DNA of 64,000 nt from Pseudofulvimonas gallinarii (GTDB lineage Bacteria > Pseudomonadota > Gammaproteobacteria > Xanthomonadales > UBA2363). The notes under the pieces are model-generated. The model saw only the letters and a program-made list of their open reading frames with translations. It was not told where the DNA came from and searched no databases. Made by a program: the position numbers and the translations under genes. Positions 1 to 35,899 of the stretch are shown in pieces (within the stretch, counting starts at the first letter, position 1; each line of letters begins with the position of its first letter). The DNA lies in the NCBI RefSeq assembly GCF_004343305.1, contig NZ_SMAF01000006.1, positions 127,501 through 191,500 on the forward strand, in the 5' to 3' direction.

Positions 1-1445
1 AGTGGCCGCCCGAGTCGATCAGCGGACTGTCGGGGCGCGGCAGCATCACCGGCACGGGCCCACCGTAATAGCCCAGCGGCAGCAGGCGCGGATCCTCGAT
101 GCCGGTGTCCAAGGAATGGCGTTCACAACTCTGGTCGCTGGATGGGAAGAGGTTCAGCCCGTTGGAACGGATGTAGCCAATGCTGTTGTGCTCACATAGC
201 GGGCCAGAGGCGTAACTGAAAAGCAGGGATGCCTGCATCGAAATGCGACCGTAGGCTTCGGTTCTGATCAGTCCGGCTATGCGGGGCGCAACGACGATGT
301 CGAAGACGGTCGAAGCGAGCAGGTACAACTCGCTTTCGCCACGGACCCGCAGGGAATTGTCGGCGGTGTAGAACGTGCTGTTGACCACTATCGCCTGGGC
401 CTTGCTCACCAGTTCGATGTCGGTCCCCAGTAGCTCGCCATCCGCGTAACTCCTGTTCAGGACGAAGGTGCTGTTGCGTACGCTCAATGCGGCCCGGGTC
501 GTTCCTGAATAGGGCCCTTCGACGGAGATCGCACCGCCGCCATTATGGCTGCGGGTGCGCGCAGAGTTTTGTTCGAACAACGAATCGGAGATGTCGATCG
601 AATTGGCGCGCTGGACACGGATGGCTCCGCCGGGTCCGTATGCGAAGGGAAGGTCGTCCACATTGCCGTTCTTCCGGAACGTACTGCGAAGGACCGTCAC
701 ATTGTCCACGCGGTCCAGCGCTATCGCACCGCCGCCATGACCGCTTCCGGTGTAGCCGGTACCGGTCGTGGCGCGGTTCCGCTCGAACAGGCAATCCACG
801 ACGCGTACCGAGTTGACCTGTTTTCCTGGGAACGCACCGCCGAAATGGGCGAGTGCGGATTGCGCGTTGTTGCGGAACGTCACGTTCGAGAATGTCACCT
901 GGTCGGCCTGGCGCAATTGAACGGCGCTTCCGGCGTTGTCCCTGTTCCAGCCATCGTAGTTGTTGCCATCGACCAGCGCGATATTCGAGAGCCCGAAATC
1001 GTGTCCCGGATTGGCCATGTCCACCACGATCATGTGGCTGGCCCCTTTCGGGGCGCGGCGCAGGGTCACCAGGTCCCCGCCGTAGATCTGCACGGCCTGG
1101 GTGATGACCAGGTTCTGGCTCATCGGGATCTCACCCGGTCCCGGCAGCGCGAAGAGGATGACATCCCAACCGCTGGAGTCGCCGGCGGTGCAGGCATCGT
1201 ACCCGAGGTTGTAGTTGGCCGACGCAACCGCTTCGCGCAGGGAGCAGTCGCCATCGTTGTTCATTTCGTCATCGAGCGTGTTGACGATGATGGCGGCCGC
1301 CTGGGCCATCGGCGAGAGCGCGGCCAGCAGCAGCGTCATCACGACACGACGGAGCATGCTGGCCTGTCCCGACGCCGGGGGAGGGGACGCGGACCGCGTG
1401 GTGCCGTGGGCCTTGCGGGCATGCGTGCGCAGTTCGTTCGTCATG
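1..1445 (-). CDS. CSLREA-type parallel beta-helix repeat secreted protein, paralog A (N-terminal about 481 codons; C-terminus lies beyond window start)
   Basis: Minus-strand reading from ATG at 1443-1445 gives MTNELRTHARK...signal-like AALSPMAQAAAIIVNTLDDEMNNDGDCSLREAV, then beta-helix repeats closely matching paralog D (4926-6404). Runs off the window, so it is absent from the ORF track. Confidence 0.6.
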
Positions 1446-1448
1446 GCT

Positions 1449-3194
1449 TCAGTCCTCGAAGTCGTCGGCGAAAATGAGGTCGGTGCCGGCCGCCGACAGC
1501 TCGAACGCGCCGATGTCGCAGTGCGCATCGCCGTCGCCGTCGCCATCCATCGGGCGCGGTTGGCCGAGCAGGTCGCTGCCCAAGGGTGAGCACGGCAGCG
1601 AGGGCCAGGCGTCGATGGCCGGGCTGCCCGGTTGCGGCAGCACCGCGAGCGGATGGATCGGATGGTCGCTGACGCTGACCGCCACCATCGGGTCGGCGAA
1701 AAGATCGTCCCCATCCAGCAGCCGACAGCTGTGCACCGGCGACAGGTTGTAGCCGCCGGTCGCCGAGACAGGGCCGAGGAACTGGCATTCCTGCCCGACC
1801 GGCGGCAGTCCGGCGGCCGGCTTGAACAGGTTGCCGACCAGGGACAGGGACAGGAATGAGGACACGTCGACATCGAGCCACATCGAGCGCCCGCCGCCTT
1901 CGGGCAGCGAGCCTGTCAGTGACTGTGCGTGAAAGGTGTTGCCGGCGACGGTGGCGGGAAGGGGCACGGCGCGGCTTAACCCAGGCGTTAGGTGGCTGTG
2001 GTGAAAGGTGTTGCCGGCGACGGTGGCGGGAAGGGGCTGGGCGTCTGGCGAAACGCTGTGGAACCAGCTGCCGCCACGGTGTTGCGCCAGGTTGGCCGAG
2101 AACAGGTTGTTTTCCATCGCCAGGAAGACTTGACCGGTCGCCACGCCTCCTCCATCGGTGGCCTGGTTGCCGAGAAAACTGTTGCGGCGCAGGATGGCCG
2201 AACTCAGGTTGTTGTTGGCGGCACCACGCATGCGGATCGCCCCGCCGACACCCGCCTCGTTGTTGCCCAGCCGGGAGTCGCTGACGTAGGCAACGAAGCG
2301 CTGGGCTTCGCCTGCAGTGCCGGCGTCGACGCTGATGGCGCCGCCATCCGTCGCGGCCTGGTTGTTCGTGAACACGCTGGAAGATATGTCCAGATACGGC
2401 ATCTCCGCTTCCGGCGGATGGTTCGCCGCTACCTGGAAGCCGATTGCACCGCCGCGGCCCACTATGGCCTGGTTGTCGTCGAAGTAGCCGTCGAGCACGG
2501 TCACCCCGTGCCCACCGACTTCGTCCAGGAAGATCGCGCCGCCACGCCCTGCACGGTTGCCGGAAAACTGCACCTTGTCCAGGCGCAGGAAGCCATTGCC
2601 GTTGGCCTGGTACAGCCCGCCTCCCGCTCCCATCGGGGACGTGGCATTGCCGATGAACTGTACCTCGGTGAAGGTGGCGTCATCGCTGCTCAGATGGACG
2701 CCACCGCCGTGCCCCATCCGCCGTGTGCCGCCCTCGATACTGACCCCCTCCATTGAGAACGGGGAAGCCGTGGCGCGCACGCTCATGACGCGATGCTCCG
2801 TGGTAGCGGATGCCACCAGGCGGACCCGCCCCGGCAGCGTGCCCAAGACCGGGGGACGGATGCCAAGCGCATGCGGCTCGCCGGCGCCATATCCGGCGCT
2901 CAGCTCACCCGACAGCTGGATCGTCGCCACGTGCGGCGGGGACGTAAACAGGCTTTCGGCGAAGGTGATTTCATCATCGCCGGTGCCCGCCGGACAATCG
3001 GCGAAGGTGGCTGCGTCGTCGCTGGCGTTGGCCAGTGCTTCGCGCAGCGAGCACAGTCCGTCGGTGTCCGGCGGGATGGCATCGTCCACGGTGTTCACGG
3101 TGATCGTGGCGGCATAGGTATTCGCAGACGCCAGCGCACCGATCGCGGTGAGCAGCACGCCCGGCAACCGGCGCAGAGGATGGATAAGGTTCAT
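1449..3194 (-). CDS. CSLREA-type parallel beta-helix repeat secreted protein, paralog B (581 aa)
   Basis: Track ORF 1449..3668(-). Internal start MNLIHPLRRLPGVLLTAIGALASA, a signal peptide, preceded by GGAGAGA RBS. Motifs TVNTVDDAIPPDTDGLCSLREALANA, repeated GG(A/G)(I/L) beta-helix turns, C-terminal DGDGDGDAHCDIGAFELSAAGTDLIFADDFED. Confidence 0.75.
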   Translation of the reverse strand: MNLIHPLRRLPGVLLTAIGALASANTYAATITVNTVDDAIPPDTDGLCSLREALANASDDAATFADCPAGTGDDEITFAESLFTSPPHVATIQLSGELSAGYGAGEPHALGIRPPVLGTLPGRVRLVASATTEHRVMSVRATASPFSMEGVSIEGGTRRMGHGGGVHLSSDDATFTEVQFIGNATSPMGAGGGLYQANGNGFLRLDKVQFSGNRAGRGGAIFLDEVGGHGVTVLDGYFDDNQAIVGRGGAIGFQVAANHPPEAEMPYLDISSSVFTNNQAATDGGAISVDAGTAGEAQRFVAYVSDSRLGNNEAGVGGAIRMRGAANNNLSSAILRRNSFLGNQATDGGGVATGQVFLAMENNLFSANLAQHRGGSWFHSVSPDAQPLPATVAGNTFHHSHLTPGLSRAVPLPATVAGNTFHAQSLTGSLPEGGGRSMWLDVDVSSFLSLSLVGNLFKPAAGLPPVGQECQFLGPVSATGGYNLSPVHSCRLLDGDDLFADPMVAVSVSDHPIHPLAVLPQPGSPAIDAWPSLPCSPLGSDLLGQPRPMDGDGDGDAHCDIGAFELSAAGTDLIFADDFED

Positions 3195-3222
3195 GGCGGG
3201 TCTCTCCTCGATGGGTGAATGG

Positions 3223-4896
3223 TCATTCGAAGCCGTCGGCGAAAATGAGGTCGGTGCCGGCCGCCGACAGCTCGAAGGCGCCGATGTCGCAGTGGGCCTC
3301 GCCGTCGCCGTCGCCATCCAACGGGCGTGGATTGCCAAGCAGGTCCATGTGGGAAGTACATGCGCCGGTGGGCCAGCCGTCGATGGCCGGGCTGCCGGAT
3401 TGCGGCAGTACCTGCAACGGATGCAGTGCGTGTCCGCTGGCGCTGGTAGCCACCATCGGATCGGCCAGGATGTCGTTGCCGGGGTTGTGCCACAGGCAAG
3501 CGGCATCCGGCGAGAGGTTGTCCCAGCTAGTGGGCACCAAAGTGCTCCCGGCGCGCACACACTCCTCCAGGTCCGGCGGCAGATCGATCGCCGGCGCGAA
3601 CAGGTTGCCAAGCATGACCCACCTGGGGGACTGGGTCGAATCGATCTGCAACCAGAGGGTGCGGCCATTGCGGAGCGGATCCGAACCGGTCAGGTGCTGC
3701 TGGTGGAACGTATTGCCTCGCATCTCGCCGTCGATCTGGTGGGTCTCGGACGAGAGGAGGTGGTACAAGGCACCGCCACGCACCTCGGCGGCGTTGCCGG
3801 AGAACAGATTGTCGGCCAGCGTCAGGCGCAGATCGGCGGTGCGGAGAGCGCCGCCGTTTCCGGCCTCGTTCGCGATGAAACTGTTGCGATTCAGGATCAA
3901 TGTACTCAGCGTATTGTGCGGTGTGCCACGAACGGACAACGCGCCGCCATTGTTTGCGTCGTTGGCGCTGAACCGGTTGTTGTTGATGTTGGCGATGAAC
4001 GCTTGATTGGCGCCGTCCTCTCCCGAGGTGATGTAGATCGCGCCGCCTTCGATCGAAGCGTGGTTGTCGTCAAAAATGCTTCCGCTAATGTTCAGCTTCG
4101 GAGGCTGGGCCTCGGGCGAGAGGCCGGGCTGCACCCGGAAAGCGATGGCGCCGCCGCGGCCGGCCCAGGCGTTGTTGTCGACGAACTGGCTGCCCTGGAT
4201 GGTTACGAAGTGTGCACGCACGTTGTTCAGGGAAATGGCGCCGCCCGTCAAGGCGGTGTTCCCCTCGAAGCGCACCCCGTAAATCTGCAGCACCCCCTCG
4301 CCATCGGCCTGGTACAGGCCGCCACCGACACCGGTGGCGGTCTGGTTTCCGATGAAGCTCACGTCCCGGAAGATCGCATCGTTGCAGGCCAGCAGAATGC
4401 CGGCGCCATTGCCCGAGGTCTGGCCGCCGCCTTCGATGCTGATCCGCTCGAGTTCGAATGTGGCAACCGCTGCGCGAACGTGCATCACGCGATGCGGCGA
4501 AGTGGTGGAGGCCACCAGCCGGACACGCCGCGCAACGCCCGTGGAGCTGGGCGGCCGGATCTGAAGCGCGTGCTTCGTGCCGGTGTCCTTGCCAGCTTCC
4601 AGCATGCCGGACAAGTGGATGGTCGCCGTGTACTGGCTGATCGGCCGGAACAGCGCGCTGACGAAGGTGATCTTGTCATTGCCGGTGCCTGCCGCGCAGT
4701 CGGGATACGTGGCCGCGTCGTCGCTGGCATTGGCGAGTGCTTCGCGCAGCGAGCACTCGCCGTCGGTGGCCGGCGGGATGGCATCGTCCACGGTGGTGAC
4801 GGTGATGGTGGCGGCCTGGGCTGCTGGAATCGCCAGCATGGCGGCCAAGGCGAGCGCGGCCGCACGCTTGCGGCTCGAGGAAGCATTCGTGGTCAT
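3223..4896 (-). CDS. CSLREA-type parallel beta-helix repeat secreted protein, paralog C
   Basis: Track ORF 3223..4929(-). Signal peptide MTTNASSSRKRAAALALAAMLAIPAAQA, then TVTTVDDAIPPATDGECSLREALANASDD; C-terminus DGDGDGEAHCDIGAFELSAAGTDLIFADGFE. Alternative GTG start at 4929 would overlap the stop of paralog D. Confidence 0.72.
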   Translation of the reverse strand: MTTNASSSRKRAAALALAAMLAIPAAQAATITVTTVDDAIPPATDGECSLREALANASDDAATYPDCAAGTGNDKITFVSALFRPISQYTATIHLSGMLEAGKDTGTKHALQIRPPSSTGVARRVRLVASTTSPHRVMHVRAAVATFELERISIEGGGQTSGNGAGILLACNDAIFRDVSFIGNQTATGVGGGLYQADGEGVLQIYGVRFEGNTALTGGAISLNNVRAHFVTIQGSQFVDNNAWAGRGGAIAFRVQPGLSPEAQPPKLNISGSIFDDNHASIEGGAIYITSGEDGANQAFIANINNNRFSANDANNGGALSVRGTPHNTLSTLILNRNSFIANEAGNGGALRTADLRLTLADNLFSGNAAEVRGGALYHLLSSETHQIDGEMRGNTFHQQHLTGSDPLRNGRTLWLQIDSTQSPRWVMLGNLFAPAIDLPPDLEECVRAGSTLVPTSWDNLSPDAACLWHNPGNDILADPMVATSASGHALHPLQVLPQSGSPAIDGWPTGACTSHMDLLGNPRPLDGDGDGEAHCDIGAFELSAAGTDLIFADGFE

Positions 4897-4925
4897 GGCA
4901 AGGATTTCCAGTGCGGAACGAGGAT

Positions 4926-6404
4926 TCACTCAAAGCCGTCGGCGAAGATGTCGTCGACGAGAATCAGGTCGTGGTCCGGGTTGAACTCCACCGCGCCGAC
5001 ATCGCACAGCGGTGTTCCGCTGCCGGTGCCCGATACCGGGCGCGGCAGGCCGCGTGCGTCGATGGCGACATCCGTGCCGCATGTCGCGCCTGCCGCGTCG
5101 ATGAGCGGGCTGTCGATGCGTGGCAGCATCACCGGCACCGGGCCGCCGTAGTCGCCCAGCGGCATCAGGCGCGGGTCGTCGATGCCCTGGTCCGATGGCG
5201 CCAGGTTGCAGCTGGTATCGCCTTGCTGAAAGCGGTTGTTTCCACCGGAAAAGACCGTGCCCTCTTCCGATGCGGTGCACAGTGGATGGGCCGGGCTGCC
5301 GAACAGGACGCTGCGATCCAAGTAAACCACGCCCTGGGGGGAGCCGTTCAGGAAACCCAGATGACTGTCGTTGCCGATGAAGGTCGAGGTGTTGATGATG
5401 GCCTCGCCGTAGTTCAAGGCCTGGACGGCGCCTTTCGTGTCATGGAAGGTGCTGTTGACGATGTGCGCGCGTACCGGAAAGTCGACGACGATGTCACCCC
5501 CGGAAGAGCCGCCACGGTTGCCGGAGAATGTGGTCCGGTGTACCGACAGCGCGCCCACGGATTCGATCGTGCCCCTGACGTGGAGGGCGCCTCCTCCCTG
5601 GAGGAGGGCGGTGTTGTTCACAAACACCGAGTCGGAAATGCGGGCCTGGTCGAAGTCCTCCAGCCGCAGCGCGGCGCCGAATCCGTACTGGCGGTGGTGG
5701 TTGTTCCGGAACGTCGTGTACCGGATCGTGACTTCGGGCACGCCCCGCAGCCACATCGCCGCGCCACCCCACCCCTCGTAGCCGGGCCTGGAGGCGGCCT
5801 GGGTTTCGTTGTCCTCGAAGCGGCTGTTCTCCACCGTTACCGACGCCACCGAGCCGAATCCGAGTGCGCCGCCCAGGTGCGCGACGGCCGATTGCGAGTT
5901 GTTGCGGAACGTGACGTTCCAGAACTTCACCGGGCCGGCGCGCTTGAGCTGTACCGCCGTACCGGCGACCTGCAGTTCGGACAACTGGGTCCAGCCGCCG
6001 CTCAGCGTCAGGTTCTGCAGCTCGAACTTGTGCGCCGGATTGGTCATGTTGACCTCGAATATCCGGTAGGCCGTGGTCAGCCGGAGGTGCTGGTTGGTGC
6101 CGATGATGGCCAGTGCCTGGGTCACCACCATGATCTGGCTCACCGGGATCTCGCCGCCCTGGAGGTTCGCGGCGAAGAGAATGACGTCGAGGCCGCCGCC
6201 GGTGTTGTGGCCGGCGGTGCAGGCATCGACCGCCACATTGGTGTTGGCCGCTTGCACGGCCTCACGCAGCGAACAGTCGCCATCGTTGTTGAGTTCGTCA
6301 TCCAGCGTGTTGACGATGATGAACGCCGCATGCGCCGCCGGGGCCATCAGCGCGATCAGCAGCACGCAGGCTGCGTGGCGAAGGAACCTGTTGAACCAAT
6401 GCAT
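4926..6404 (-). CDS. CSLREA-type parallel beta-helix repeat secreted protein, paralog D
   Basis: Track ORF 4926..6848(-). Chosen start MHWFNRFLRHAACVLLIALMAPAAHA is a signal peptide. Then IIVNTLDDELNNDGDCSLREAVQAAN; C-terminus GSGTPLCDVGAVEFNPDHDLILVDDIFADGFE. Confidence 0.68.
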   Translation of the reverse strand: MHWFNRFLRHAACVLLIALMAPAAHAAFIIVNTLDDELNNDGDCSLREAVQAANTNVAVDACTAGHNTGGGLDVILFAANLQGGEIPVSQIMVVTQALAIIGTNQHLRLTTAYRIFEVNMTNPAHKFELQNLTLSGGWTQLSELQVAGTAVQLKRAGPVKFWNVTFRNNSQSAVAHLGGALGFGSVASVTVENSRFEDNETQAASRPGYEGWGGAAMWLRGVPEVTIRYTTFRNNHHRQYGFGAALRLEDFDQARISDSVFVNNTALLQGGGALHVRGTIESVGALSVHRTTFSGNRGGSSGGDIVVDFPVRAHIVNSTFHDTKGAVQALNYGEAIINTSTFIGNDSHLGFLNGSPQGVVYLDRSVLFGSPAHPLCTASEEGTVFSGGNNRFQQGDTSCNLAPSDQGIDDPRLMPLGDYGGPVPVMLPRIDSPLIDAAGATCGTDVAIDARGLPRPVSGTGSGTPLCDVGAVEFNPDHDLILVDDIFADGFE

Positions 6405-6934
6405 TGCACAGTCCTTGACAACGGAACAGGTGACTGGATGGCCGGGCGGGGCAGCCGCCGGGGCGGAAGCTGGAACTGGCTGGATGCACTGCATGGTGGT
6501 TTCTCCCGATTCCATTCCGGTTTTCCTGGCGTCGTGCCGGCTTGACAGCGAAGCGGAGTGATCCTTCCGGAACGGTGCGGAGCGGAACCACCTGACGGTC
6601 GCGCTCGCGTATTCCGGTCCGTGCCGACATGGATGGAGAGCACATTGCAGGACGCGTGCCAGTCCTTCTGTGCTGAAGAAACAGAGACTTGCGGCCGTCA
6701 ACGTGCATTGACGTCGCACTTCCGCGACGATCTGCCTCATTGCCGAGACGGTTGCACCCGGCCCGGACGGAAGGCGCCTGGATGTGCCGGATGCGTGCGC
6801 GATGTATCGTCGCGGCGCAAGGCGACCGCGTGCGGGCGCCGGGGCCATGGAAAAGGGCAGGCGCCAGCCGCCCCGGGAAATCTCGCAGCGACGTCAGCGG
6901 GCGCCGGGACGCATCGCCCGGGCCGGGCACACCT

Positions 6935-7315
6935 TCAGGGCGTTGGGTCGGGCCGGACCGACACGGTCATGGTGAACGGCCGTGGCTCACCCGAACGCCA
7001 GTCGAGATTCTCGATGCAGAAGTACAGTTTGCCCTCAAGCACGGTGGTGCGTGCCGTCGTGCGGTGGCTGTGGTCGATCTCGCTTCTGCAGAAAATGATC
7101 TGGCCTCCCTCGGCATGCAGGGTCGCCTCGGCCTCGCGTCCCGCCTCCACGCCGGTGATGACATACGTGGGAGAGCGGTCGGAAAGCTGCCCGCTGATGG
7201 TGAGGGGGGAGCCGTCCTCGGGGAACGGCACCTCGATTTCCTGCGTGAAGCCGGCTCCGGCGTGAAGCAGGGTGGCCGCGTTCATCGCAATCAGGCAGAA
7301 CCGGTTTTTCGCCAT
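6935..7315 (-). CDS. small secreted hypothetical protein (about 127 aa)
   Basis: Track ORF 6935..7342(-). GGAGGA sits 6 nt before the third ATG, giving MAKNRFCLIAMNAATLLHAGAG, a signal peptide. No recognisable domain. Confidence 0.45.
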   Translation of the reverse strand: MAKNRFCLIAMNAATLLHAGAGFTQEIEVPFPEDGSPLTISGQLSDRSPTYVITGVEAGREAEATLHAEGGQIIFCRSEIDHSHRTTARTTVLEGKLYFCIENLDWRSGEPRPFTMTVSVRPDPTP

Positions 7316-7375: not shown

Positions 7376-7870
7376 CTAGTCGCATCCGGTCCAGGGATTT
7401 CCGCACGCACTTCCGGGCGGCATCCAGCCACGCAACACCGGGTTGTCGATCTCCGTGCCAGTGACGGGCAGCTCGACTTCCACCCAGTCCTCACGGCAGC
7501 CCGCCAGGGGAAGGTCGATGGCGAACAGTGAAATGTCGATCGTTTCCGACGTCCGACCGGCGCGCTGGTGCACCTTGTACTTCCGTGGCGGCCGCACCGC
7601 CAGTTTCACGGCGGGGACCCAGCCGCTGCCGGTGAAGGCTTCGCTGCCACGCGAGTCCACGGCGTGCACGACCCGCGTCCACTCGCCGCTGTGTTCGACC
7701 ACCGCGAAAACCGTCCGTCCGGGGTCTGCCGGCACGGTCGCGATGGAGGCGAAATCGTTGCCGGGGCCACTACGGACCTCGATGGCCGTTTCCGGGTCCA
7801 GGGAGAAGGCGTGGATGTCGCACGAGGTGGCGGCATGCGTGGGCGGACACAGGCACGCCAGCACGATCAC
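7376..7870 (-). CDS. secreted SH3b-like hypothetical protein, paralog 1 (start uncertain)
   Basis: Track ORF 7376..8065(-). Mature-like region ATSCDIHAF...GWVPAVKLAVRPP...GWMPPGSACGNPWTGCD is paralogous to 8014..8550. Only a GTG start is plausible in front of the hydrophobic segment IVLACLCPPTHA; the long ATG-initiated N-terminus is not signal-like. Confidence 0.4.
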   Translation of the reverse strand: MIVLACLCPPTHAATSCDIHAFSLDPETAIEVRSGPGNDFASIATVPADPGRTVFAVVEHSGEWTRVVHAVDSRGSEAFTGSGWVPAVKLAVRPPRKYKVHQRAGRTSETIDISLFAIDLPLAGCREDWVEVELPVTGTEIDNPVLRGWMPPGSACGNPWTGCD

Positions 7871-8013
7871 GACACGGGCGCCGGCGCGGGCGGCCGCGAT
7901 GCCCGGCGACCATGCAGCATGTCGGCAGGACGGGGAGGGCCCGTTCCGCGTATCCGCTGGCCATCGGCCCGGGAGAAACCGCCTTGGCTGGAAGGCCGTA
8001 CCGGGTACGCCGT

Positions 8014-8550
8014 TCACATGCAGTCCTCCCAGGGGCTGCCGCACCAGCTGCCGCGGGGAAGCCATCCTTCCAGATCTTCGCCGCCGCGCACGGGGACGAC
8101 GATCTTCATCCAGTCATCCGAACAGGCGAGCAGGTTCACGTCGAGCTCCGCCCTGAGGCTGCCGAGTACCTCGCTCTTCCGGTCGGGAGAGGCGTGAAAC
8201 GGAACCAGGTCATCGTGCGGATCGATGGTGCGCACGGCGAGCTGCGGTGCATGTATCCAGCCGGCGCCATCGAACACGCGCGTCCTGGTTGCATCGACAG
8301 CCGACGCCACGTTGATCCAGTCCTTCCTCGCGCCCTTCAGCAAGACCAGTGTTCCTCCAGGACTCGGTGGCAGCTTGCCCACGATGGGCGACGAGACATC
8401 GGCGTCGGCATGGATCTCGACCGTTCCGTAGGGATTGGCGACGAAAGCGGCAACGTCGCATTCCGTTGCCGACTGCGCCAGCCCGGGAACCGCGAAGGCC
8501 GCCAGCAGCAGCGGACGCGGGGAGCGCTTACGGGTGTGTTCGTTCATGGA
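8014..8550 (-). CDS. secreted SH3b-like hypothetical protein, paralog 2 (178 aa)
   Basis: Internal start MNEHTRKRSPRPLLLAAFAVPGLAQS (signal peptide) with CAGGAGA RBS. Carries ATECDVAAF...GWIHAPQLAVRT...GWLPRGSWCGSPWEDCM. Its ATG overlaps the stop of the upstream lipoprotein gene (ATGA). Confidence 0.55.
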   Translation of the reverse strand, partial: SMNEHTRKRSPRPLLLAAFAVPGLAQSATECDVAAFVANPYGTVEIHADADVSSPIVGKLPPSPGGTLVLLKGARKDWINVASAVDATRTRVFDGAGWIHAPQLAVRTIDPHDDLVPFHASPDRKSEVLGSLRAELDVNLLACSDDWMKIVVPVRGGEDLEGWLPRGSWCGSPWEDCM

Positions 8551-9155
8551 GTCTCCTGGAGGCGATGTGCCGTGAAAGTACCGCGGACGCTTCCATCGGC
8601 ATCGGCAATGTCGATTTCCGCAGAGACTTCCATCGCGGCTGCCGGCAGGATCCGCACCAGGCCACTGGCCTCGCGGCCTCCCAGTAACGTGACCGAATCC
8701 CGACCGTTCCTGTAACGGGCGATGAGCACCGTGCCGACCCTGTTGAAAGGCGTCGACGCCGGCCTGTACTCGCCGGGCCGGATCGGGGCATCGGCAGGCG
8801 TGTCCATTCCGGCCTCGATCTGTATGTCCACGCGGAACTGCCCGGGCGAGTGGATCCTTCGGAAGTCCTCCAGCCCCGCCCTGGCCGCCTGCAGGTCGTA
8901 GTTGGCCAGAAGGATGCGGTGGACGGTGGCGGGTACGCGCTCCTGCGGGTTCGCGATGGCCGCGTCCGTCAGGACCAGGTTCTTCCGGTAGGTCGAGAAC
9001 GTCGCGTAGGTCGGTTCGAACGGGACGGCTTCGCCATCGAAATTCAACGTGATCGCCGGCGGCCCGTCTTGGCCGGACTGGCCGGGACGGGGGCTGTCGG
9101 CACATCCGGCAAGCAGCGCCGACAGCATCATCGCCTTGACGGTTGACCGTTTCAT
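8544..9155 (-). CDS. lipoprotein, hypothetical (203 aa)
   Basis: Track ORF 8544..9230(-). Internal start MKRSTVKAMMLSALLAGCADSP carries a lipobox LAGC. No recognised domain. Confidence 0.5.
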   Translation of the reverse strand: MKRSTVKAMMLSALLAGCADSPRPGQSGQDGPPAITLNFDGEAVPFEPTYATFSTYRKNLVLTDAAIANPQERVPATVHRILLANYDLQAARAGLEDFRRIHSPGQFRVDIQIEAGMDTPADAPIRPGEYRPASTPFNRVGTVLIARYRNGRDSVTLLGGREASGLVRILPAAAMEVSAEIDIADADGSVRGTFTAHRLQETP

Positions 9156-9165
9156 CCGGCGCCGG

Positions 9166-10023
9166 TCACACGTCGCTGGCAACGATTTCGGCGTCGACGA
9201 GCCTGACCTGCTGGCCCAACGCGCCGTCAACCCGCCCCCGCACCAGATGAACGCGATCCGGCACCGCCAGGTCCTCGCCCGGCGCCGCCCGCAGCTGGAC
9301 GAAAACGCCCTTGCGGTGGGTGGCCGTATCCTGCAGTTCGATGTGATGGATCGTGCCGCTGTCGACCTGCGACGTGGTCCAGCCGTTGAAGTAACCGCGG
9401 ACCGTGACTTCCTGTCCGATCAATCCCCGCATCGCCGCTTGCAGGTCGTCCACCCGCACGGGAGTGGTGGCCGGGAGGCTGTCCGCCTGCAGCGGTTGTG
9501 GCGCCGGTGGCGGAAGACCATCGGCGTCACCGATGCGCTGGCAGTCTTCCATTTCGACATGGTCGGCAACGGTTCCGGTGATCCGGCCGCGAACAAGGAT
9601 GACGCGGTTGCGAGACAGCGGCTCTGCATCCGGCGCCGCCATGTTGCCCTGGAGCAGCCCCGGCTGGGTATCGGACTTCCCCGGCTCGATGTGCAGCCTC
9701 ACGGTCCGCTCCAGCGGGTCGTTGTCGAAGAACAGCATCGGGTAGCCCGCCACCACAACCTCCTTGCCGGTCCAGCCGAACAGATGGTCGTGCAGTTCCT
9801 GCACCTCCCAGGGCCGGGGCTGCGATGGCTGTGACATGTCTGACTCCTGGCTGGTCTGGGCGCCGGTGACCCGGGAAGTGATGGCAAGGCTGGCGGTCAA
9901 ACCCGGCGCATGGGCCAGGGTTGACGGATCGCGCGCGGGCGCGGACGTCGCCGTCGCGAGCAGGAGGGCTGGCGCCAGCAATGCGGGTGAAGCCAGGCGG
10001 AGGCGGGAACAGGAAGTGGGCAT
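9166..10023 (-). CDS. secreted hypothetical protein with two internal repeats of about 90 aa
   Basis: Track ORF 9166..10521(-). Internal start MPTSCSRLRLASPALLAPALLLATATSAPA (signal), GGAGA upstream. Two homologous modules: VQELHDHLFGWTGKEVVVAGY...RVILVRGRITG and VDDLQAAMRGLIGQEVTVRGY...RVHLVRGRVDG. Confidence 0.5.
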   Translation of the reverse strand: MPTSCSRLRLASPALLAPALLLATATSAPARDPSTLAHAPGLTASLAITSRVTGAQTSQESDMSQPSQPRPWEVQELHDHLFGWTGKEVVVAGYPMLFFDNDPLERTVRLHIEPGKSDTQPGLLQGNMAAPDAEPLSRNRVILVRGRITGTVADHVEMEDCQRIGDADGLPPPAPQPLQADSLPATTPVRVDDLQAAMRGLIGQEVTVRGYFNGWTTSQVDSGTIHHIELQDTATHRKGVFVQLRAAPGEDLAVPDRVHLVRGRVDGALGQQVRLVDAEIVASDV

Positions 10024-11504: not shown

Positions 11505-11580
11505 TGGTGGCCAGGGACGGAATCGAACCGCCGACACGGGGATTTTCAATCCCCTGCTCTACCAACTGAGCTACCTGGCC
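11505..11580 (-). tRNA. tRNA-Phe (anticodon GAA)
   Basis: Reverse complement reads GGCCAGGTAGCTCAGTTGGTAGAGCAGGGGATTGAAAATCCCCGTGTCGGCGGTTCGATTCCGTCCCTGGCCACCA: 7-bp acceptor stem, D-loop AGTTGGTAGAGC, anticodon loop TTGAAAA (anticodon GAA), T-loop GGTTCGATTCC, encoded CCA. Confidence 0.9.
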
Positions 11581-32282: not shown

Positions 32283-33716
32283 ATGACGCGCCTCATATCC
32301 GCCCTGGCCCTTCTGCTGGCCTGTCCGCTGTCCGCCAGTGCGGCCGTGTTCTTCGTCACCAACACCCACGACAGCGGCCTGGGTTCGTTGCGCTCGGCCA
32401 TCGACGAGGCCAATGCCGCGGGTCCTGGCGCGCATCAGGTCCGCTTCGACGGCCCCTTTCCCCAAGATGGCCTGGTGCAGCTCGGCAGCACCCTGCCGAC
32501 GCTCACGGCGGCCCAGCTGACCATCCACGGCAATGGATACAATCCACGCATTGCCGGCAACGATACGTTCCCCCTGCTCGTTGCCGCATCGACGCTGAGC
32601 CGCCTGGAATTGAATGGCCTCACCCTCTCCTCCGGTCGCGCCACGGATGAAGGGGGCGGCTGCCTGGCCGCGCACGCGGCGGGTCCGTCTTCCACGCTGG
32701 TCATCCAGAACAGCCGGTTCGACAACTGCGCCGTCGTGCAGACCTCGGGCTGGGCACGGGGCGGCGCGATCTTCTGGAACTTCGGTTTCGTCACCATACG
32801 TGACAGCGAAATCAGTCACAGCTTTGCCAGTACGCAGGGCGGCACGCAGTCCGACGTCGCCTCCGGCGGCGCCATCACTACGCATGGGGAACTGCTGGTC
32901 GAGCGCAGCCGTTTCATCACGAACACCGCCATCGGCCATGTTTCAAGGGGCGGTGCGGTGACGACCACGGACAGCGCCGTCATCCGCGATTCCTTCTTCC
33001 ACGATAATTTCGCCTTCAGCACCGCCACGCCGGGGCGTGGCCAGGCTGGCGCGGTGTTGATCGACTGCGTTGCCTGCGATGCGGTCCTGGAACGCAATAC
33101 CTTTACCGCGAACTTCTCGGACTGGGCGGGTGCGGTCTTCGTCCGCGGCAACCAGGACATCAACCGGGCCAGTCTGGTGGCGCACAACAACACCTTCCAC
33201 GGCAACGAAGGAGCGTTGTCGGCCGGAGCCCTGTACGCGCTGTTCGTTTCCGCATCCCTGGTCCACAACACCTTCCACCACAACCTCGCGCCGGCGGATG
33301 CCGCCGGTCACGTGTATTTCGAGAGCGCCATTGTCGAGAACGTGGCCAACAACGTGTTCGCACCGACTGCCGGCGGCAAGGCCTGCATGGGTTGGACGAT
33401 CGAGATGCCGGGGCTGGACGCCGGCAATCTTGCCGCCGACGGAACCTGCGGGCTGCTGGTGCCCGGCATTGCCGCCAACGCCGTGCTGGGTCCCGTCGAA
33501 GTGGACTACAGCCCGGCTGTGCCGGTTGTCCGGTTCGCCGCCGGCAGCCCGGTGATCGATGGCGGCGATGACAAGGGTTGCCTGGCCCAGGATGTACTGG
33601 GCAATGCCAGGCCGATCGATGGCAATGGCGATGGCCACGCCCGCTGCGACGTCGGCGCCTACGAACACCCGCTGGACGACACGCTGTTCGCCGACGGCTT
33701 CGAAGCGCTGCCTTGA
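32283..33716 (+). CDS. parallel beta-helix repeat secreted protein, divergent family member E (477 aa)
   Basis: Start MTRLISALALLLACPLSASA with GGAGAAA RBS. N-terminus VFFVTNTHDSGLGSLRSAIDEANA resembles CSLREA. C-terminus GNARPIDGNGDGHARCDVGAYEHPLDDTLFADGFEALP matches the C-terminal module of paralogs A-D. Confidence 0.7.
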   Translation: MTRLISALALLLACPLSASAAVFFVTNTHDSGLGSLRSAIDEANAAGPGAHQVRFDGPFPQDGLVQLGSTLPTLTAAQLTIHGNGYNPRIAGNDTFPLLVAASTLSRLELNGLTLSSGRATDEGGGCLAAHAAGPSSTLVIQNSRFDNCAVVQTSGWARGGAIFWNFGFVTIRDSEISHSFASTQGGTQSDVASGGAITTHGELLVERSRFITNTAIGHVSRGGAVTTTDSAVIRDSFFHDNFAFSTATPGRGQAGAVLIDCVACDAVLERNTFTANFSDWAGAVFVRGNQDINRASLVAHNNTFHGNEGALSAGALYALFVSASLVHNTFHHNLAPADAAGHVYFESAIVENVANNVFAPTAGGKACMGWTIEMPGLDAGNLAADGTCGLLVPGIAANAVLGPVEVDYSPAVPVVRFAAGSPVIDGGDDKGCLAQDVLGNARPIDGNGDGHARCDVGAYEHPLDDTLFADGFEALP

Positions 33717-33901: not shown

Positions 33902-35899
33902 ATGAAAGGTCGTCTGGGACATTACGAGATCGTCGCCGAGCTGGGACGGGGTGGCATGGGCGTTGTGCACAAGGCGCTGGATCCGGCCCTGGGCCGTGTG
34001 GTCGCCATCAAGGAACTGGCGCCTGCGCTGGCTGACGACCCCGCCCTGGTCGAGCGCTTCCTGCGCGAGGCGCGTTCGATGGCCGCCCTCTCGGATCCGC
34101 ACATCGTCGGCATCCACTTCATCGGCCAGGAGAACGGCCGCCCGTTCTTCGTCATGGAATTCGTCGAAGGCGAAGCGCTGGGCAACATGCTCCGCCGCCT
34201 CGGCAAGCTGCCGGTCGCCGACACGCTGAAGATCCTGCACCAGACGGCGCAGGGCCTGGCGACCGCGCATGACCGCGGCGTCATCCATCGCGACATCAAG
34301 CCGGGCAACATCCTGGTGGACACCAGGGGCCGCGTGCGCCTGGCCGACTTCGGCATCGCACTGGCCGCCAACGATCCCGGCCAGAAGCTGACCAGCACCG
34401 GTGAGTTCATCGGCACCCCGGGTTACGTCTCGCCGGAAATCTGCAAGGGCCTGCCGATCGACCCGCGCTCGGACATCTTCTCGCTGGGCGTGGTGATGTT
34501 CGAAATGCTCAGTGGCCGCATGCCGTTCACCGACAACAGCCCGCTGGGCCTGATGCTGGAAGTGGTGAATGCGCAGATTCCCGACATCCACACACTGAAC
34601 GACCAGGTCGACGCGGAGACGGCGGCGATCCTGGCGAAGATGGTCGCAAAGAACGCCGACGACCGTTACCAGAGCGCGCGTGAACTGGCCGCCGACCTGG
34701 CGCGGCATCCGCTGGTCGCCGACGGCAAGCCGCTGTCGGTCCCCGTCGTGCCGCCCAGCGACAGCCAGACCGTGATCGCCGCGCTGTCGCAGCCGCGCGT
34801 GCCGACGCCGCCGCCGGTGGTATCGCGCGCCGATGCCGACGCCGCCGACACGCGCCCGCGCGGTCCCCGCCCGGCAGCCGCCGCCGCGCAGGATCCGGAA
34901 GCGACGCTGGTGCGCGCGCCGGCTGCCGCCAACGATCCAACCGGTCGCCAGCGCCTGGTCGCCGGCCTCGCGCTCGCCGCGCTGGTCCTGGCCGGCACCG
35001 GCTACGCCTTCCGCGACTACTTCACCGGGTTTGCCAACGGTTTCCGCGACGGCTTCGTCGCCGGAAAGGTCAGCAATCCGGTTCCGCCGAGCCATGCCAA
35101 CGACCTGCCGGTCGCGGCGCTGACGTCGGCTTCCCCTGCAACCGGCGCGATGGATGCGGCCCCGCCGCAGGTGGAGAACGCTTCGGCGTCGCCGTCGCAG
35201 GCGCCGACAGCTGTCGCCATGGGGGATGCCCCGGCGATGGTGCAGGCCGGCGGGGAGACGCAGGCGTCACAGTCGGTGGCCGGCCAGTCCGCCAGCACGG
35301 CTACCGTTGCCGGCAGCGATCCGCAGGCGCTGGCCGCCAGCGTCGACAGCCAGCCGCCGGCGACGGCACCGGCTTCGAGCGAAGGGCTCCGCGCGGGCGC
35401 GCAGAGCACGCCGCAGCCGAGTCGTCCGGCACAGGCGCGTGCCGCCGCCGAGCCGCCTCCGCCGCCGCGCTTCGTCGTCATCGCGCAGGGCGACAGCGCC
35501 CTGAGCCTGCCGGCGCAGCAGCGCATCGAGGACTACCTTTCCGGCGCCGGTCATCGCCTGGTGGATGCGGAAACCGTGCCCGGCCTGTCCGCTGCTGACA
35601 CCGCGTCGCTGATCCGCGCCGCCCGCCGTCACGCCCGCGTGGTGGTGATCGTGCGCACCGAGCCCATCGGCAGCCGCGACCTGCATTTCTACGGTCGCCA
35701 TGACGTCGCCTACACGGCCTACCTGAGCGTGCGTGCCTATGACACCCAGACCGGCCAGCCGCTGTCGTCGGGCTTCCGCCAGAAGGTCGAGTTCGCCGCG
35801 CTGAATGCCGAGCAGCGTGCCAACGAAGCACTCGATCCGGAGCTCTCGTCACTGGCCCGCGTCGTCGCGCCGGTGCTGCGCCAGACCTCGCGCGGCTAA
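33902..35899 (+). CDS. eukaryotic-type Ser/Thr protein kinase with TM segment and C-terminal extracytoplasmic domain
   Basis: Hanks motifs: GRGGMGVVHKA, VAIKEL, HRDIKPGNILV, DFGIA, GTPGYVSPE. Pro/Ala linker, TM LVAGLALAALVLAGTGYAF, 300-aa C-domain. Confidence 0.85.
   Translation: MKGRLGHYEIVAELGRGGMGVVHKALDPALGRVVAIKELAPALADDPALVERFLREARSMAALSDPHIVGIHFIGQENGRPFFVMEFVEGEALGNMLRRLGKLPVADTLKILHQTAQGLATAHDRGVIHRDIKPGNILVDTRGRVRLADFGIALAANDPGQKLTSTGEFIGTPGYVSPEICKGLPIDPRSDIFSLGVVMFEMLSGRMPFTDNSPLGLMLEVVNAQIPDIHTLNDQVDAETAAILAKMVAKNADDRYQSARELAADLARHPLVADGKPLSVPVVPPSDSQTVIAALSQPRVPTPPPVVSRADADAADTRPRGPRPAAAAAQDPEATLVRAPAAANDPTGRQRLVAGLALAALVLAGTGYAFRDYFTGFANGFRDGFVAGKVSNPVPPSHANDLPVAALTSASPATGAMDAAPPQVENASASPSQAPTAVAMGDAPAMVQAGGETQASQSVAGQSASTATVAGSDPQALAASVDSQPPATAPASSEGLRAGAQSTPQPSRPAQARAAAEPPPPPRFVVIAQGDSALSLPAQQRIEDYLSGAGHRLVDAETVPGLSAADTASLIRAARRHARVVVIVRTEPIGSRDLHFYGRHDVAYTAYLSVRAYDTQTGQPLSSGFRQKVEFAALNAEQRANEALDPELSSLARVVAPVLRQTSRG

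Follow-up and report, generated by a model that had tools for sequence, protein, structure and literature searches.

The beta-helix proteins encoded by a tandem gene array of Pseudofulvimonas gallinarii (family Rhodanobacteraceae) end in an acidic, aromatic C-terminal motif of 9–10 residues, and this motif, which resembles a sorting signal in comparative genomics, is the main value of the present analysis. The tail is an autonomous, protein-level linear motif at the extreme C-terminus that is portable between unrelated exported proteins. The gene family itself is already catalogued; the tail is apparently undescribed and looks like a tag for sorting or retention that is new and not tripartite. 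As the best explanation, with a somewhat better than even chance of being right, we propose that the array encodes Sec-exported beta-helix proteins of the CSLREA/rhombotarget A class that carry a C-terminal tag read in trans.

Paralogous Genes in the Window

The window, that is, the whole stretch of 64,000 nucleotides analyzed here, contains paralogues A to E (Table 1). Open reading frames (ORFs) and their translations bore out the head-to-tail, minus-strand array of A to D that an earlier note on this DNA had described, with intergenic gaps of 4, 28, and 29 nt. The true start of A is likely the signal-peptide Met at 1357 rather than the annotated ATG. All five proteins possess the basic N-region and hydrophobic core of signal peptides, and none has a transmembrane (TM)-like segment later in the protein (after residue 40). 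A sixth paralogue of 466 aa, with CSLIEA and the C-terminus VIFAHGFD, is located ~8 kb outside the window start. The gene encoding E is found at an equivalent syntenic position in GCA_003732435.1.

Table 1. Positions of the paralogues, their C-terminal tails, and the adjoining kinase gene in the window.
Feature	Coordinates	Strand	Length	Details
Paralogue A, partial	1..1444	-		Annotated ATG 1444; CSLREA ~1214-1291; C-terminus past window edge
Paralogue B	1449..3194	-	581 aa	Signal peptide; CSLREA ~3030-3104; PMP-type beta-helix repeats; Q domain 1497-1637
Tail of B	1452..1481	-		D-L-I-F-A-D-D-F-E-D
Paralogue C	3223..4896	-	557 aa	Signal peptide; CSLREA ~4732-4806; beta-helix; Q domain 3268-3405
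Tail of C	3226..3252	-		D-L-I-F-A-D-G-F-E, then stop
Paralogue D	4926..6404	-	492 aa	Signal peptide; CSLREA 6243-6320; beta-helix; Q domain 4980-5177
Tail of D	4929..4955	-		D-D-I-F-A-D-G-F-E, then stop
Paralogue E	32283..33716	+	477 aa	Signal peptide; GSLRSA replaces CSLREA; beta-helix; Q domain 33504-33665
Tail of E	33678..33713	+		D-T-L-F-A-D-G-F-E-A-L-P
Membrane Ser/Thr protein kinase	33902..35899	+		Directly downstream of E; Pkinase 3e-50

Domain Composition and Predicted Structures

Model matches were judged against cut-offs of 25 bits for TIGR04214 (CSLREA_Nterm), 25 bits for NF041518 (choice-of-anchor Q), and 295 bits for TIGR04212. The reported CSLREA string is literally present in A to D, and the TIGR04214 cut-off is exceeded by A (35.1 bits) and D (41.3 bits); B (23.4 bits) and C (21.7 bits) remain slightly under it despite the literal string. 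Paralogue E had been described as lacking a proper CSLREA, and it indeed has GSLRSA there and no TIGR04214 match. Beta_helix or Chlam_PMP repeats occur in all five proteins (PF13229 in A, D, and E; PF02415 in A, B, and C), in agreement with the proposed beta-helix fold, and DSSP assigns a regular strand ladder to the models of C and D. The suspected choice-of-anchor Q region was likewise recovered, with NF041518 above its cut-off in B (31.5 bits), C (31.7 bits), D (47.9 bits; a full-length match, model positions 1-58), and E (40.2 bits), and at 21.0 bits in A, which the window edge truncates and whose full form has CDLGAVEW. This Q domain is small, contains Cys, and follows the pattern R-P-x(5-9)-C-D-[ILV]-G-A-[FVY]-E. 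The earlier note had allowed that the proteins might match no CSLREA or beta-helix model, or that their C-terminal module might be conserved in this genome only; the NCBIfam and Pfam matches and conservation well beyond this genome speak against both.

In the predicted layout, the signal peptide is followed by a CSLREA cap, in which a Cys pair is conserved, and then by a PMP-like beta-helix body of about 350-450 residues, the Q domain, and a flexible acidic tail. The body may serve as an adhesin or glycan binder, judging from its fold alone. In the AlphaFold model of C, which was built from a 13-sequence alignment and has a low-confidence Q domain, the beta-helix is confident over residues 28-470, and pLDDT is <50 at 537-548 and 553-557. 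The model of D, based on a 55-sequence alignment, has a mean pLDDT of 89.9 and a resolved Q domain at 85-96, with residues 483-492 below 50. The tail may therefore be flexible and unpacked, or the low pLDDT could instead be model uncertainty.

The closest PDB fold to the D model is RbtA (9CDV; Foldseek E = 5e-10, TM 0.52-0.57), which is also the top Foldseek match of the C model; a PDB sequence search with D gave no match, and RbtA was reached only by fold comparison. RbtA (rhombotarget A) of Acinetobacter baumannii, the closest relative that has been characterized, is found on the cell surface and is a substrate of type II secretion. It shares the signal peptide, the CSLREA N-terminal cap, and the right-handed beta-helix body with the window proteins (TIGR04212; PDB 9CDV/9CDU). 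However, the latter score only 24-38 bits with TIGR04212 (D best, 37.7) at ~15% identity, and RbtA ends in a GlyGly-CTERM processed by rhombosortase, whereas the window proteins end in the Q domain and acidic tail. The GGAI-type beta-helix repeats of A, B, and C are also reminiscent of chlamydial Pmp proteins (PF02415), but Pmps have the C-terminal beta-barrel of autotransporters, whereas the window proteins stop 14-17 residues past the Q domain, and Pfam and NCBIfam scans detected no autotransporter (type V) beta-barrel domain in A to E.

Two Separate C-Terminal Elements

The "35-aa module" of the earlier note dissolves into two elements, the known Q domain and a separate acidic tail behind it. 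The NF041518 match stops at ...GAFE-L, and B, C, and D continue in the form ...CD[IV]GA[FV]E-(linker)-[IL]FAD[GD]FE(D). The tail itself reads D-x-[ILV]-F-A-D-G-F-E, with zero to four residues then remaining to the C-terminus. Paralogue E ends in ...CDVGAYEHPLDDTLFADGFEALP, and the C-terminus of A, taken from the same genome (L137), is ...CDLGAVEWNPDHDPIWIDRLFADGFEG; the full protein ends in DRLFADGFEG. The last 12 residues of A to E are strongly acidic, with a net charge of -3 to -5. Full-length scans found no Pfam model over the tail region, and no NCBIfam model matched the tail, including in scans of tail peptides at E-values up to 10; literature searches for the motif and for Xanthomonadales sorting signals returned nothing on this tail.

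The original proposal took these endings as a single Ca-binding or anchoring module of ~35 aa belonging to choice-of-anchor Q, on locally amplified adhesins under diversifying selection, and we now give it only a slight chance. It accounts for the NF041518 matches and the tandem genes, and the DGDGDG stretch on which it drew is present in B and C and occurs as DGNGDG in E. A and D instead have SGTGSG/ASGVGP, and shared Ca binding through DGDGDG was dropped because these two proteins lack it. A single module is also at odds with a Q model that stops before the tail and with the occurrence of the tail without a Q domain on many families.

The evolutionary part of the proposal fared no better, since the copies are ancient, gene order is conserved, and dN/dS against orthologues is 0.36-0.37. 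The copies form two old pairs, A/D with 44% identity and B/C with 50%, and every other pairing has 24-31%; judging from this range of 24-50%, the duplication of A to D is old. Tandem Repeats Finder detected no DNA tandem repeats in 1-7000. Related metagenome contigs keep the A-D gene order with variable slot content (97% identity for D and 95.5% for C; 44% in the B slot and 37% in the A slot), B has a 24-aa insertion at ~1965-2036 relative to its orthologue P0004, and one homologue is a B/C mosaic. The different alleles in the B and A slots of close relatives and the mosaic could be taken as signs of diversification; they speak for recombination and the replacement of alleles, and do not demonstrate positive selection.

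Distribution of the Tail Across Proteins and Taxa

A genome scan for F-A-D-G-F-E-stop, in which one genome per species and one codon pattern were used and taxonomic limits were only sampled, returned at least 119 matches, mostly from Lysobacterales. Genuine-looking long ORFs number at least 78 in records labeled Lysobacterales and at least 15 in unclassified gammaproteobacterial or proteobacterial MAGs; among the matches listed, 17 of 21 from other phyla are short chance ORFs. Carriers belong to Rhodanobacteraceae, Ahniellaceae, and other Lysobacterales, and include the cultured P. gallinarii, Dokdonella fugitiva, Chiayiivirga flava DSM 24163, Aquimonas voraii DSM 16957, and Tahibacter sp. UC22_41. 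Copies are multiple, with six tails in about 75 kb of P. gallinarii, at least six strict-pattern matches in one Ahniellaceae MAG, and four in one 8-kb Chiayiivirga locus.

The carriers have little in common besides the tail. Pfam searches with the matches listed assign 75 tail proteins to 76 families, among them propellers, S8, M12, and M14 peptidases, di-haem peroxidases, RCC1, and Big_13, and an unrelated secreted protein of 108-110 aa adjoining the array in related contigs has the C-terminus CIFADGFE. Mean column identity among the carriers listed is 7% apart from the invariant FADGFE. Conservation nevertheless extends outside the search pattern: I, L, or V precedes the F in 83 of 85 non-redundant long ORFs among the matches listed, and D occupies the position two residues further upstream in 56% of them. 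The wider consensus is D-x-[ILV]-F-[AS]-[DN]-G-F-E, and 25 of 30 independent motif instances are located 0-5 residues from the stop. A crude heuristic, whose background rate is 35%, assigned signal-peptide-like N-termini to 41 of 49 tail ORFs and to 91 of 262 other ORFs, and some tail proteins have Tat-type signals.

One 21-nt string recurs at many gene ends, which might suggest that the repeated ending is a feature of the DNA (a repeat, a terminator, or a recombination site over the stop codon) or an annotation artefact. Nucleotide conservation refutes a DNA element: information content is zero past the stop, and upstream of it conservation tracks codon positions 1-2 with free wobble. The synonymous or conservative variants TTTTCCGATGGATTCGAG, FANGFE, FSDGFE, and FADRFE also argue against this reading, which in either form is hardly credible.

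Comparison With Known Sorting Signals

The name "choice of anchor" fits these proteins, because homologues of D carry different C-terminal anchors behind the Q domain: they end in IPTL-CTERM (PF18203), LPXTG-like, MYXO-CTERM-like, short Chloroflexi-type YLPLVxR, or DGFE-type tails. NF041518 proteins with IPTL-CTERM, LPXTG, or MYXO-CTERM share the CSLREA/beta-helix body and the Q domain near the C-terminus, and the tail of the window proteins occupies the exact slot of their sorting signal. The signals of these homologues are tripartite (motif, TM helix, and Arg cluster), whereas the window tail is acidic, 9-10 residues long, and devoid of a TM helix.

When the eight criteria of Haft for prokaryotic C-terminal protein-sorting signals (bioRxiv 10.1101/2023.06.07.544157) are applied, the tail conforms to six (1, 2, 3, 6, 7, and 8): it stands next to the stop (1), is present in multiple copies per genome (2), and keeps a conserved consensus (3), most carriers have an N-terminal signal peptide (6), carriers are alike only in the signal (7), and homologues elsewhere lack the signal or have another (8). 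It departs from criterion 4, as no hydrophobic TM segment follows the motif and the protein ends 0-4 residues on, and from criterion 5, the C-termini being acidic rather than ending in a basic cluster.

The tail thus parallels the LPXTG/sortase, PEP-CTERM/exosortase, GlyGly-CTERM/rhombosortase, and MYXO-CTERM/myxosortase systems: it stands at the very C-terminus, recurs many times per genome, keeps invariant signature residues, and is found on otherwise unrelated proteins that have N-terminal signal peptides and whose homologues bear other signals. It differs from them in lacking a hydrophobic helix and a basic cluster, which leaves no room for a mechanism based on an intramembrane endopeptidase or transpeptidase. 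With no membrane-spanning helix and no Arg cluster, cleavage and re-anchoring in the membrane of the sortase, exosortase, rhombosortase, or myxosortase type cannot be the way in which the tail works. We know of no described small sorting domain that does without a membrane helix and an Arg cluster.

A structural role in cis would require no sorting at all. The tail could be a cap, spread by domain shuffling, in which a small F-A-D-G-F beta-hairpin or an acidic end either stabilizes the last domain or shields the C-terminus from periplasmic tail-specific proteases. From the sequence, a two-stranded hairpin around the D-G turn could form, the C-termini are acidic as noted above, and no partner machinery was found beside tail genes. 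We nevertheless consider a cap unlikely: a tail found behind at least 76 unrelated Pfam folds and on a 110-aa protein cannot fit one domain surface, AlphaFold leaves that of D unpacked beside a well-modeled Q domain, seven to nine conserved positions exceed the needs of charge protection, and genuine sorting signals occupy this slot in homologues.

Neighboring Genes

A cognate sorting enzyme was not found beside tail genes; the recurring neighbors are regulators. Genes encoding kinase-TM-TPR proteins occur in 13 of 119 tail loci among the matches listed and are frequently accompanied by an ECF-type sigma factor; genes for such sigma factors occur in eight. A divergent ToxR-like Trans_reg_C-TM-TPR regulator follows the array in three divergent versions of the locus, and a membrane Ser/Thr kinase follows E in the window. 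This kinase belongs to the genomic context of E and is possibly a local regulator.

Short acidic C-terminal peptides are common ligands of TPR domains, as known in eukaryotes for Hop/Hsp90 EEVD and PEX5 PTS1. The tail might likewise be a ligand of the putative periplasmic TPR sensor domains of adjoining TM regulators, reporting secretion load or surface-protein status. The neighborhoods just described would fit such a role. Most tail genes lack a neighbor of this kind, however, the kinase beside E has no TPR match, and the adjacency may merely mirror local transcriptional control of secreted-protein genes, which makes a sensor ligand improbable.

Other candidates near the array were rejected. 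A 193-aa gene product downstream of the array is an orphan (six clusters in 5.8 billion proteins) and was discarded as a general tail-handling factor. A tblastn search of the window with the regulator and the small proteins downstream in the related contigs gave no match, which also ruled out the window lipoprotein at 8544-9230 as a relative of the 178-aa L001 lipoprotein.

Proposed Route and Implications

Under the preferred explanation of a tag read in trans, A to E and the sixth copy would be exported by Sec to the periplasm with the tail exposed. The exposed tail may then be recognized by lineage-specific machinery, which would decide a post-periplasmic step: the protein would either cross the outer membrane or be retained on the surface of the cell or in vesicles. 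Some carriers belong to usually periplasmic families such as di-haem peroxidases, and outer-membrane secretion is therefore not implied for all of them.

A more specific version, to which we attach a modest chance, holds that type II secretion, or an unknown pathway of outer-membrane translocation or surface attachment, reads D-x-[ILV]-F-A-D-G-F-E-COOH as a linear targeting signal on folded periplasmic proteins in a Lysobacterales clade. To our knowledge, type II secretion signals have stayed elusive. If this version is true, the tail would be the first of its kind in Proteobacteria: a short C-terminal tag for secretion or retention that can be transplanted between proteins.

As a targeting or retention tag, the motif could be a rare linear signal for post-periplasmic sorting and would help in the search for new envelope machinery. 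It would also delimit a set of surface or secreted proteins, the size of a regulon, in Rhodanobacteraceae and Ahniellaceae, which are environmentally common in wastewater, soil, and groundwater.

Organization of the Array and Its Surroundings

Pseudofulvimonas gallinarii belongs to the family Rhodanobacteraceae within the order Lysobacterales. The FabA protein encoded in the window also occurs in NCBI assembly GCA_003732435.1, on a contig that matches the window at 99.99% identity over 14.5 kb, and three assemblies encode a protein identical to B. ORF listing and translation confirmed the four same-strand paralogues (A, B, C, and D) on the minus strand, which are separated by intergenic gaps of 4, 28, and 29 nt, and located a fifth paralogue, E, on the plus strand. 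The N-termini of all five proteins comprise a basic N-region and a hydrophobic core, no TM-like segment follows the N-terminus in any of the five, and the C-termini are uniformly acidic. The literal CSLREA string is present in A, B, C, and D, and GSLRSA occupies that place in E. Pairwise identity is 44% for A/D, 50% for B/C, and 24-31% for the remaining pairs; judged from these values, the array copies form two old pairs and did not arise by a recent amplification.

Coordinates of the paralogues and of neighboring genes (L137, the same locus reaching past the window start)
Feature	Position	Strand	Location or basis
Paralogue A	1444 down to window edge	minus	ORF listing and translation
Paralogue B	1449-3194	minus	ORF listing and translation
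Paralogue C	3223-4896	minus	ORF listing and translation
Paralogue D	4926-6404	minus	ORF listing and translation
Paralogue E	32283-33716	plus	ORF listing and translation
Membrane Ser/Thr kinase	33902-35899	plus	directly after E
ToxR-like one-component regulator (Trans_reg_C winged helix, a single TM segment, and a large TPR domain)	L137 14527-16821	minus	~3 kb beyond window position 1
Sixth paralogue (466 aa, CSLIEA for CSLREA)	L137 19947-21347	minus	~8 kb beyond window position 1

In L137, the complete protein A has the C-terminus DRLFADGFEG. Beyond the window start, this locus also encodes a 193-aa secreted orphan protein and the sixth paralogue, which contains the Q-type motif CDVGAVEY and the tail variant VIFAHGFD. 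The ToxR-like TM-TPR regulator lies downstream of the array in divergent orientation and is conserved across three diverged forms of this locus (L137; L001 7728-10154; L003 10327-12639). Gene C is intact in the window; in one of three P. gallinarii assemblies (GCA_003732435.1, L139 8264-9972), it is called in two pieces of 341 and 225 aa, the cause being a frameshift or faulty assembly.

Upstream of the array, two paralogous secreted proteins of ~165-177 aa are encoded at 7376-8065 and ~8014-8547, both on the minus strand. An N-terminal Cys and a CGxPWxxC end are common to both, and their Pfam matches to SH3_3 (bacterial SH3) are sub-threshold in one and faint in the other. The 203-aa lipoprotein that follows (8544-9155) has no family match. 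A single tRNA gene (11508-11580, minus strand) is the sole Rfam match within the window.

Family Assignment and Fold

The assignment to the CSLREA/beta-helix/choice-of-anchor Q family made earlier is correct according to NCBIfam, Pfam, AlphaFold, and PDB fold matches. B, C, D, and E score above the NCBIfam cut-off for the choice-of-anchor Q domain (Q domain; NF041518), A and D score above that for CSLREA_Nterm (TIGR04214), with B and C slightly under it, and Beta_helix and/or Chlam_PMP repeats (Pfam) are found in all five. The rhombotarget A equivalog gives weak partial matches, with scores no higher than 38 bits (cut-off 295). The AlphaFold model of D, based on 55 homologues (mean pLDDT 89.9), shows a regular beta-helix and a Q domain modelled with confidence, and the PDB entry that it matches best is that of the rhombotarget A (RbtA) beta-helix domain from Acinetobacter baumannii (9CDV, E=5e-10, TM 0.52-0.57), far above polysaccharide lyases, epimerases, and tailspikes; RbtA is likewise the top match of the C model. 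RbtA has been described as a cell-surface protein whose structure is the first of its class (PMC12643943), and RbtA and CSLREA proteins have been reported as type II secretion substrates in Acinetobacter (PMC9245377; PMC5861075). The five paralogues are exported RbtA-class beta-helix proteins. This assignment is ordinary, and the interesting result is the C-terminal tail.

Selection and Array Dynamics

Paralogues D and C share 97% and 95.5% identity with their orthologues in the related metagenome contig L001, and the corresponding dN/dS ratios (0.37 for D and 0.36 for C) indicate relaxed purifying selection on these two genes rather than the diversifying selection that had been proposed. In L001 (3289-6510, versus window 1-3194), the genes occupying slots B and A encode proteins of only 44% and 37% identity, and P0002, a mosaic homologue, combines B-like ends with a C-like middle; together with the high identity of D and C, these sequence patterns indicate that diversity arises within a conserved array through recombination and the replacement of alleles. 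Compared with its orthologue P0004, B is longer by a 24-residue insertion at ~1965-2036 (minus strand), an internal duplication of the segment PLPATVAGNTFH..., which adds one beta-helix rung.

The Q Domain and the Tail Are Separate Units

The C-terminal module of ~35 aa in the earlier note, for which Ca binding was one suggested function, proved to be the known Q domain plus a separate tail. The Q-domain match stops 14-17 residues short of the C-terminus, at ...GA[FVY]E(L), and is followed by a short linker and then by [ILV]-F-A-D-G-F-E. In the AlphaFold model of D, the last 10 residues are unpacked (pLDDT <50) behind the well-defined Q domain. Homologues retain the tail even with another preceding domain, e.g., PF18998, and other homologues have in its place IPTL-CTERM (PF18203), LPXTG-like signals, MYXO-CTERM-like motif-TM-Arg signals, or short Chloroflexi-type YLPLVxR ends.

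A secreted Gly/Ser-rich protein of 108-110 aa, unrelated to the array, adjoins it in related metagenome contigs (L002 749-1081; L003 5380-5706) and ends in CIFADGFE. It follows a 562-aa protein with GADGLP...LKVAHCGNAAC repeats (cut by the contig end in L002), and L022 contains a 113-aa protein ending in SIFADGFE and a homologue of the repeat protein within one 8-kb stretch, so the two may form a conserved gene pair. In L028 (234-aa ORF) and L078, an IPTL/PEP-like hydrophobic segment and RLR occur ~45 residues before the FADGFE end of one ORF, in which two kinds of C-terminal signal may have been joined by fusion or by a frameshift.

Census of the Tail

DNA encoding F-A-D-G-F-E-stop was searched for in one genome per species across 185,579 species, which yielded at least 119 stretches. 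Among the matches listed, the in-frame ORFs are mostly 200-1600 aa long; genuine-looking tail ORFs number 78 in Lysobacterales-labelled records (Dokdonella, Aquimonas, Chiayiivirga, Tahibacter, Rudaea, Ahniellaceae, Rhodanobacteraceae, and Wenzhouxiangellaceae) and 15 in unclassified Gamma-/Proteobacteria MAGs, and 17 of the 21 hits in other phyla are short ORFs as chance would give. Outside the search pattern, 83 of the 85 non-redundant long ORFs among these matches have I, L, or V immediately before F, and 56% have Asp two positions further upstream. The carriers are diverse: 75 among the matches listed match 76 different Pfam families, including DUF5122 and other propellers, beta-helices, FG-GAP, RCC1, Big_13, S8, M12, and M14 peptidases, and di-haem peroxidases.

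The position of a relaxed motif provided a test independent of the search pattern, in which 25 of 30 further instances in 917 kb sit 0-5 residues from a stop, three at 6-20 residues, and two further away. The repeated ending could also be read as a DNA element, which is ruled out because conservation ends directly after the stop codon and wobble positions are free; the signal is at the protein level. By a crude heuristic, signal-peptide-like N-termini are present in 41 of 49 carriers versus 91 of 262 other ORFs, and Tat-type signals are found in a few carriers. Many exported proteins of one bacterial order share this conserved linear motif, which is terminal and autonomous, and we place high confidence in the tag being both real and autonomous.

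Tail-bearing beta-helix genes also stand in tandem in other genera; Chiayiivirga flava, for example, has four such genes within one 8-kb locus. Among the D homologues P0061-P0065 and P0067-P0084, tail variants ([ILV]F[AS]DRFE-x-x-P, [ILV]F[KR][NH]GF[ND]Y, and F-x-D-S-F-E) define subgroups, so the tag seems to have evolved in a lineage-specific way, perhaps in step with a receptor. Many CSLREA homologues (among them P0027, P0032, P0099, P0119, P0120, P0143, P0145, P0167, P0168, and P0173) have a short hydrophobic end, e.g., (V/I)YLPL(V/L)x(R/K), located directly behind the Q domain in most of these ten and behind other domains in P0099 and P0145. Its named carriers are Chloroflexi-type MAGs (e.g., Anaerolineae, Caldilineae, and Dehalococcoidia), and it may be another short C-terminal tag of non-tripartite design.

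Comparison With Known Sorting Signals and Possible Role

Membrane Ser/Thr kinase genes adjoin tail-bearing genes in 13 of 119 loci among the matches listed (L007, L009, L014, L039, L042, L056, L059, L082, L084, L085, L087, L111, and L113), and an ECF-type sigma factor gene is also found in eight loci among them. The kinases outside the window have a C-terminal TPR region. Such neighbors may regulate the tail-bearing secreted proteins locally, as a module that recurs between loci.

Of the eight attributes that Haft listed for small prokaryotic C-terminal sorting domains (bioRxiv 10.1101/2023.06.07.544157), the tail shares six: C-terminal position, multiple copies per genome, invariant signature residues, and carriers that have signal peptides, are otherwise unrelated, and have homologues with other signals. 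It lacks the TM helix and the basic cluster, the two attributes that define the tripartite design, which rules out an intramembrane sortase-like enzyme as the mechanism. No model of NCBIfam release 20.0 matches the tail, and full-length Pfam scans placed none over the tail region. Among the papers searched, none contains the motif; absence from these collections of models and papers does not prove that it has gone unnoticed. D-x-[ILV]-F-A-D-G-F-E is apparently an undescribed, non-tripartite C-terminal tag of exported Lysobacterales proteins.

Whether the tail acts in sorting we regard as evenly balanced. After export, the exposed tail would be bound in trans, and this binding would direct a post-periplasmic step, namely outer-membrane secretion or retention, the latter on the surface or in vesicles. 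Type II secretion would be the obvious candidate route by analogy, since it is used by RbtA, the closest characterised relative, and since Tat-type signals occur in some carriers. A single Ca-binding module is one rival reading; the tail might also act in cis as a cap or protease shield, or be a ligand of the putative periplasmic TPR sensors that recur beside tail genes.
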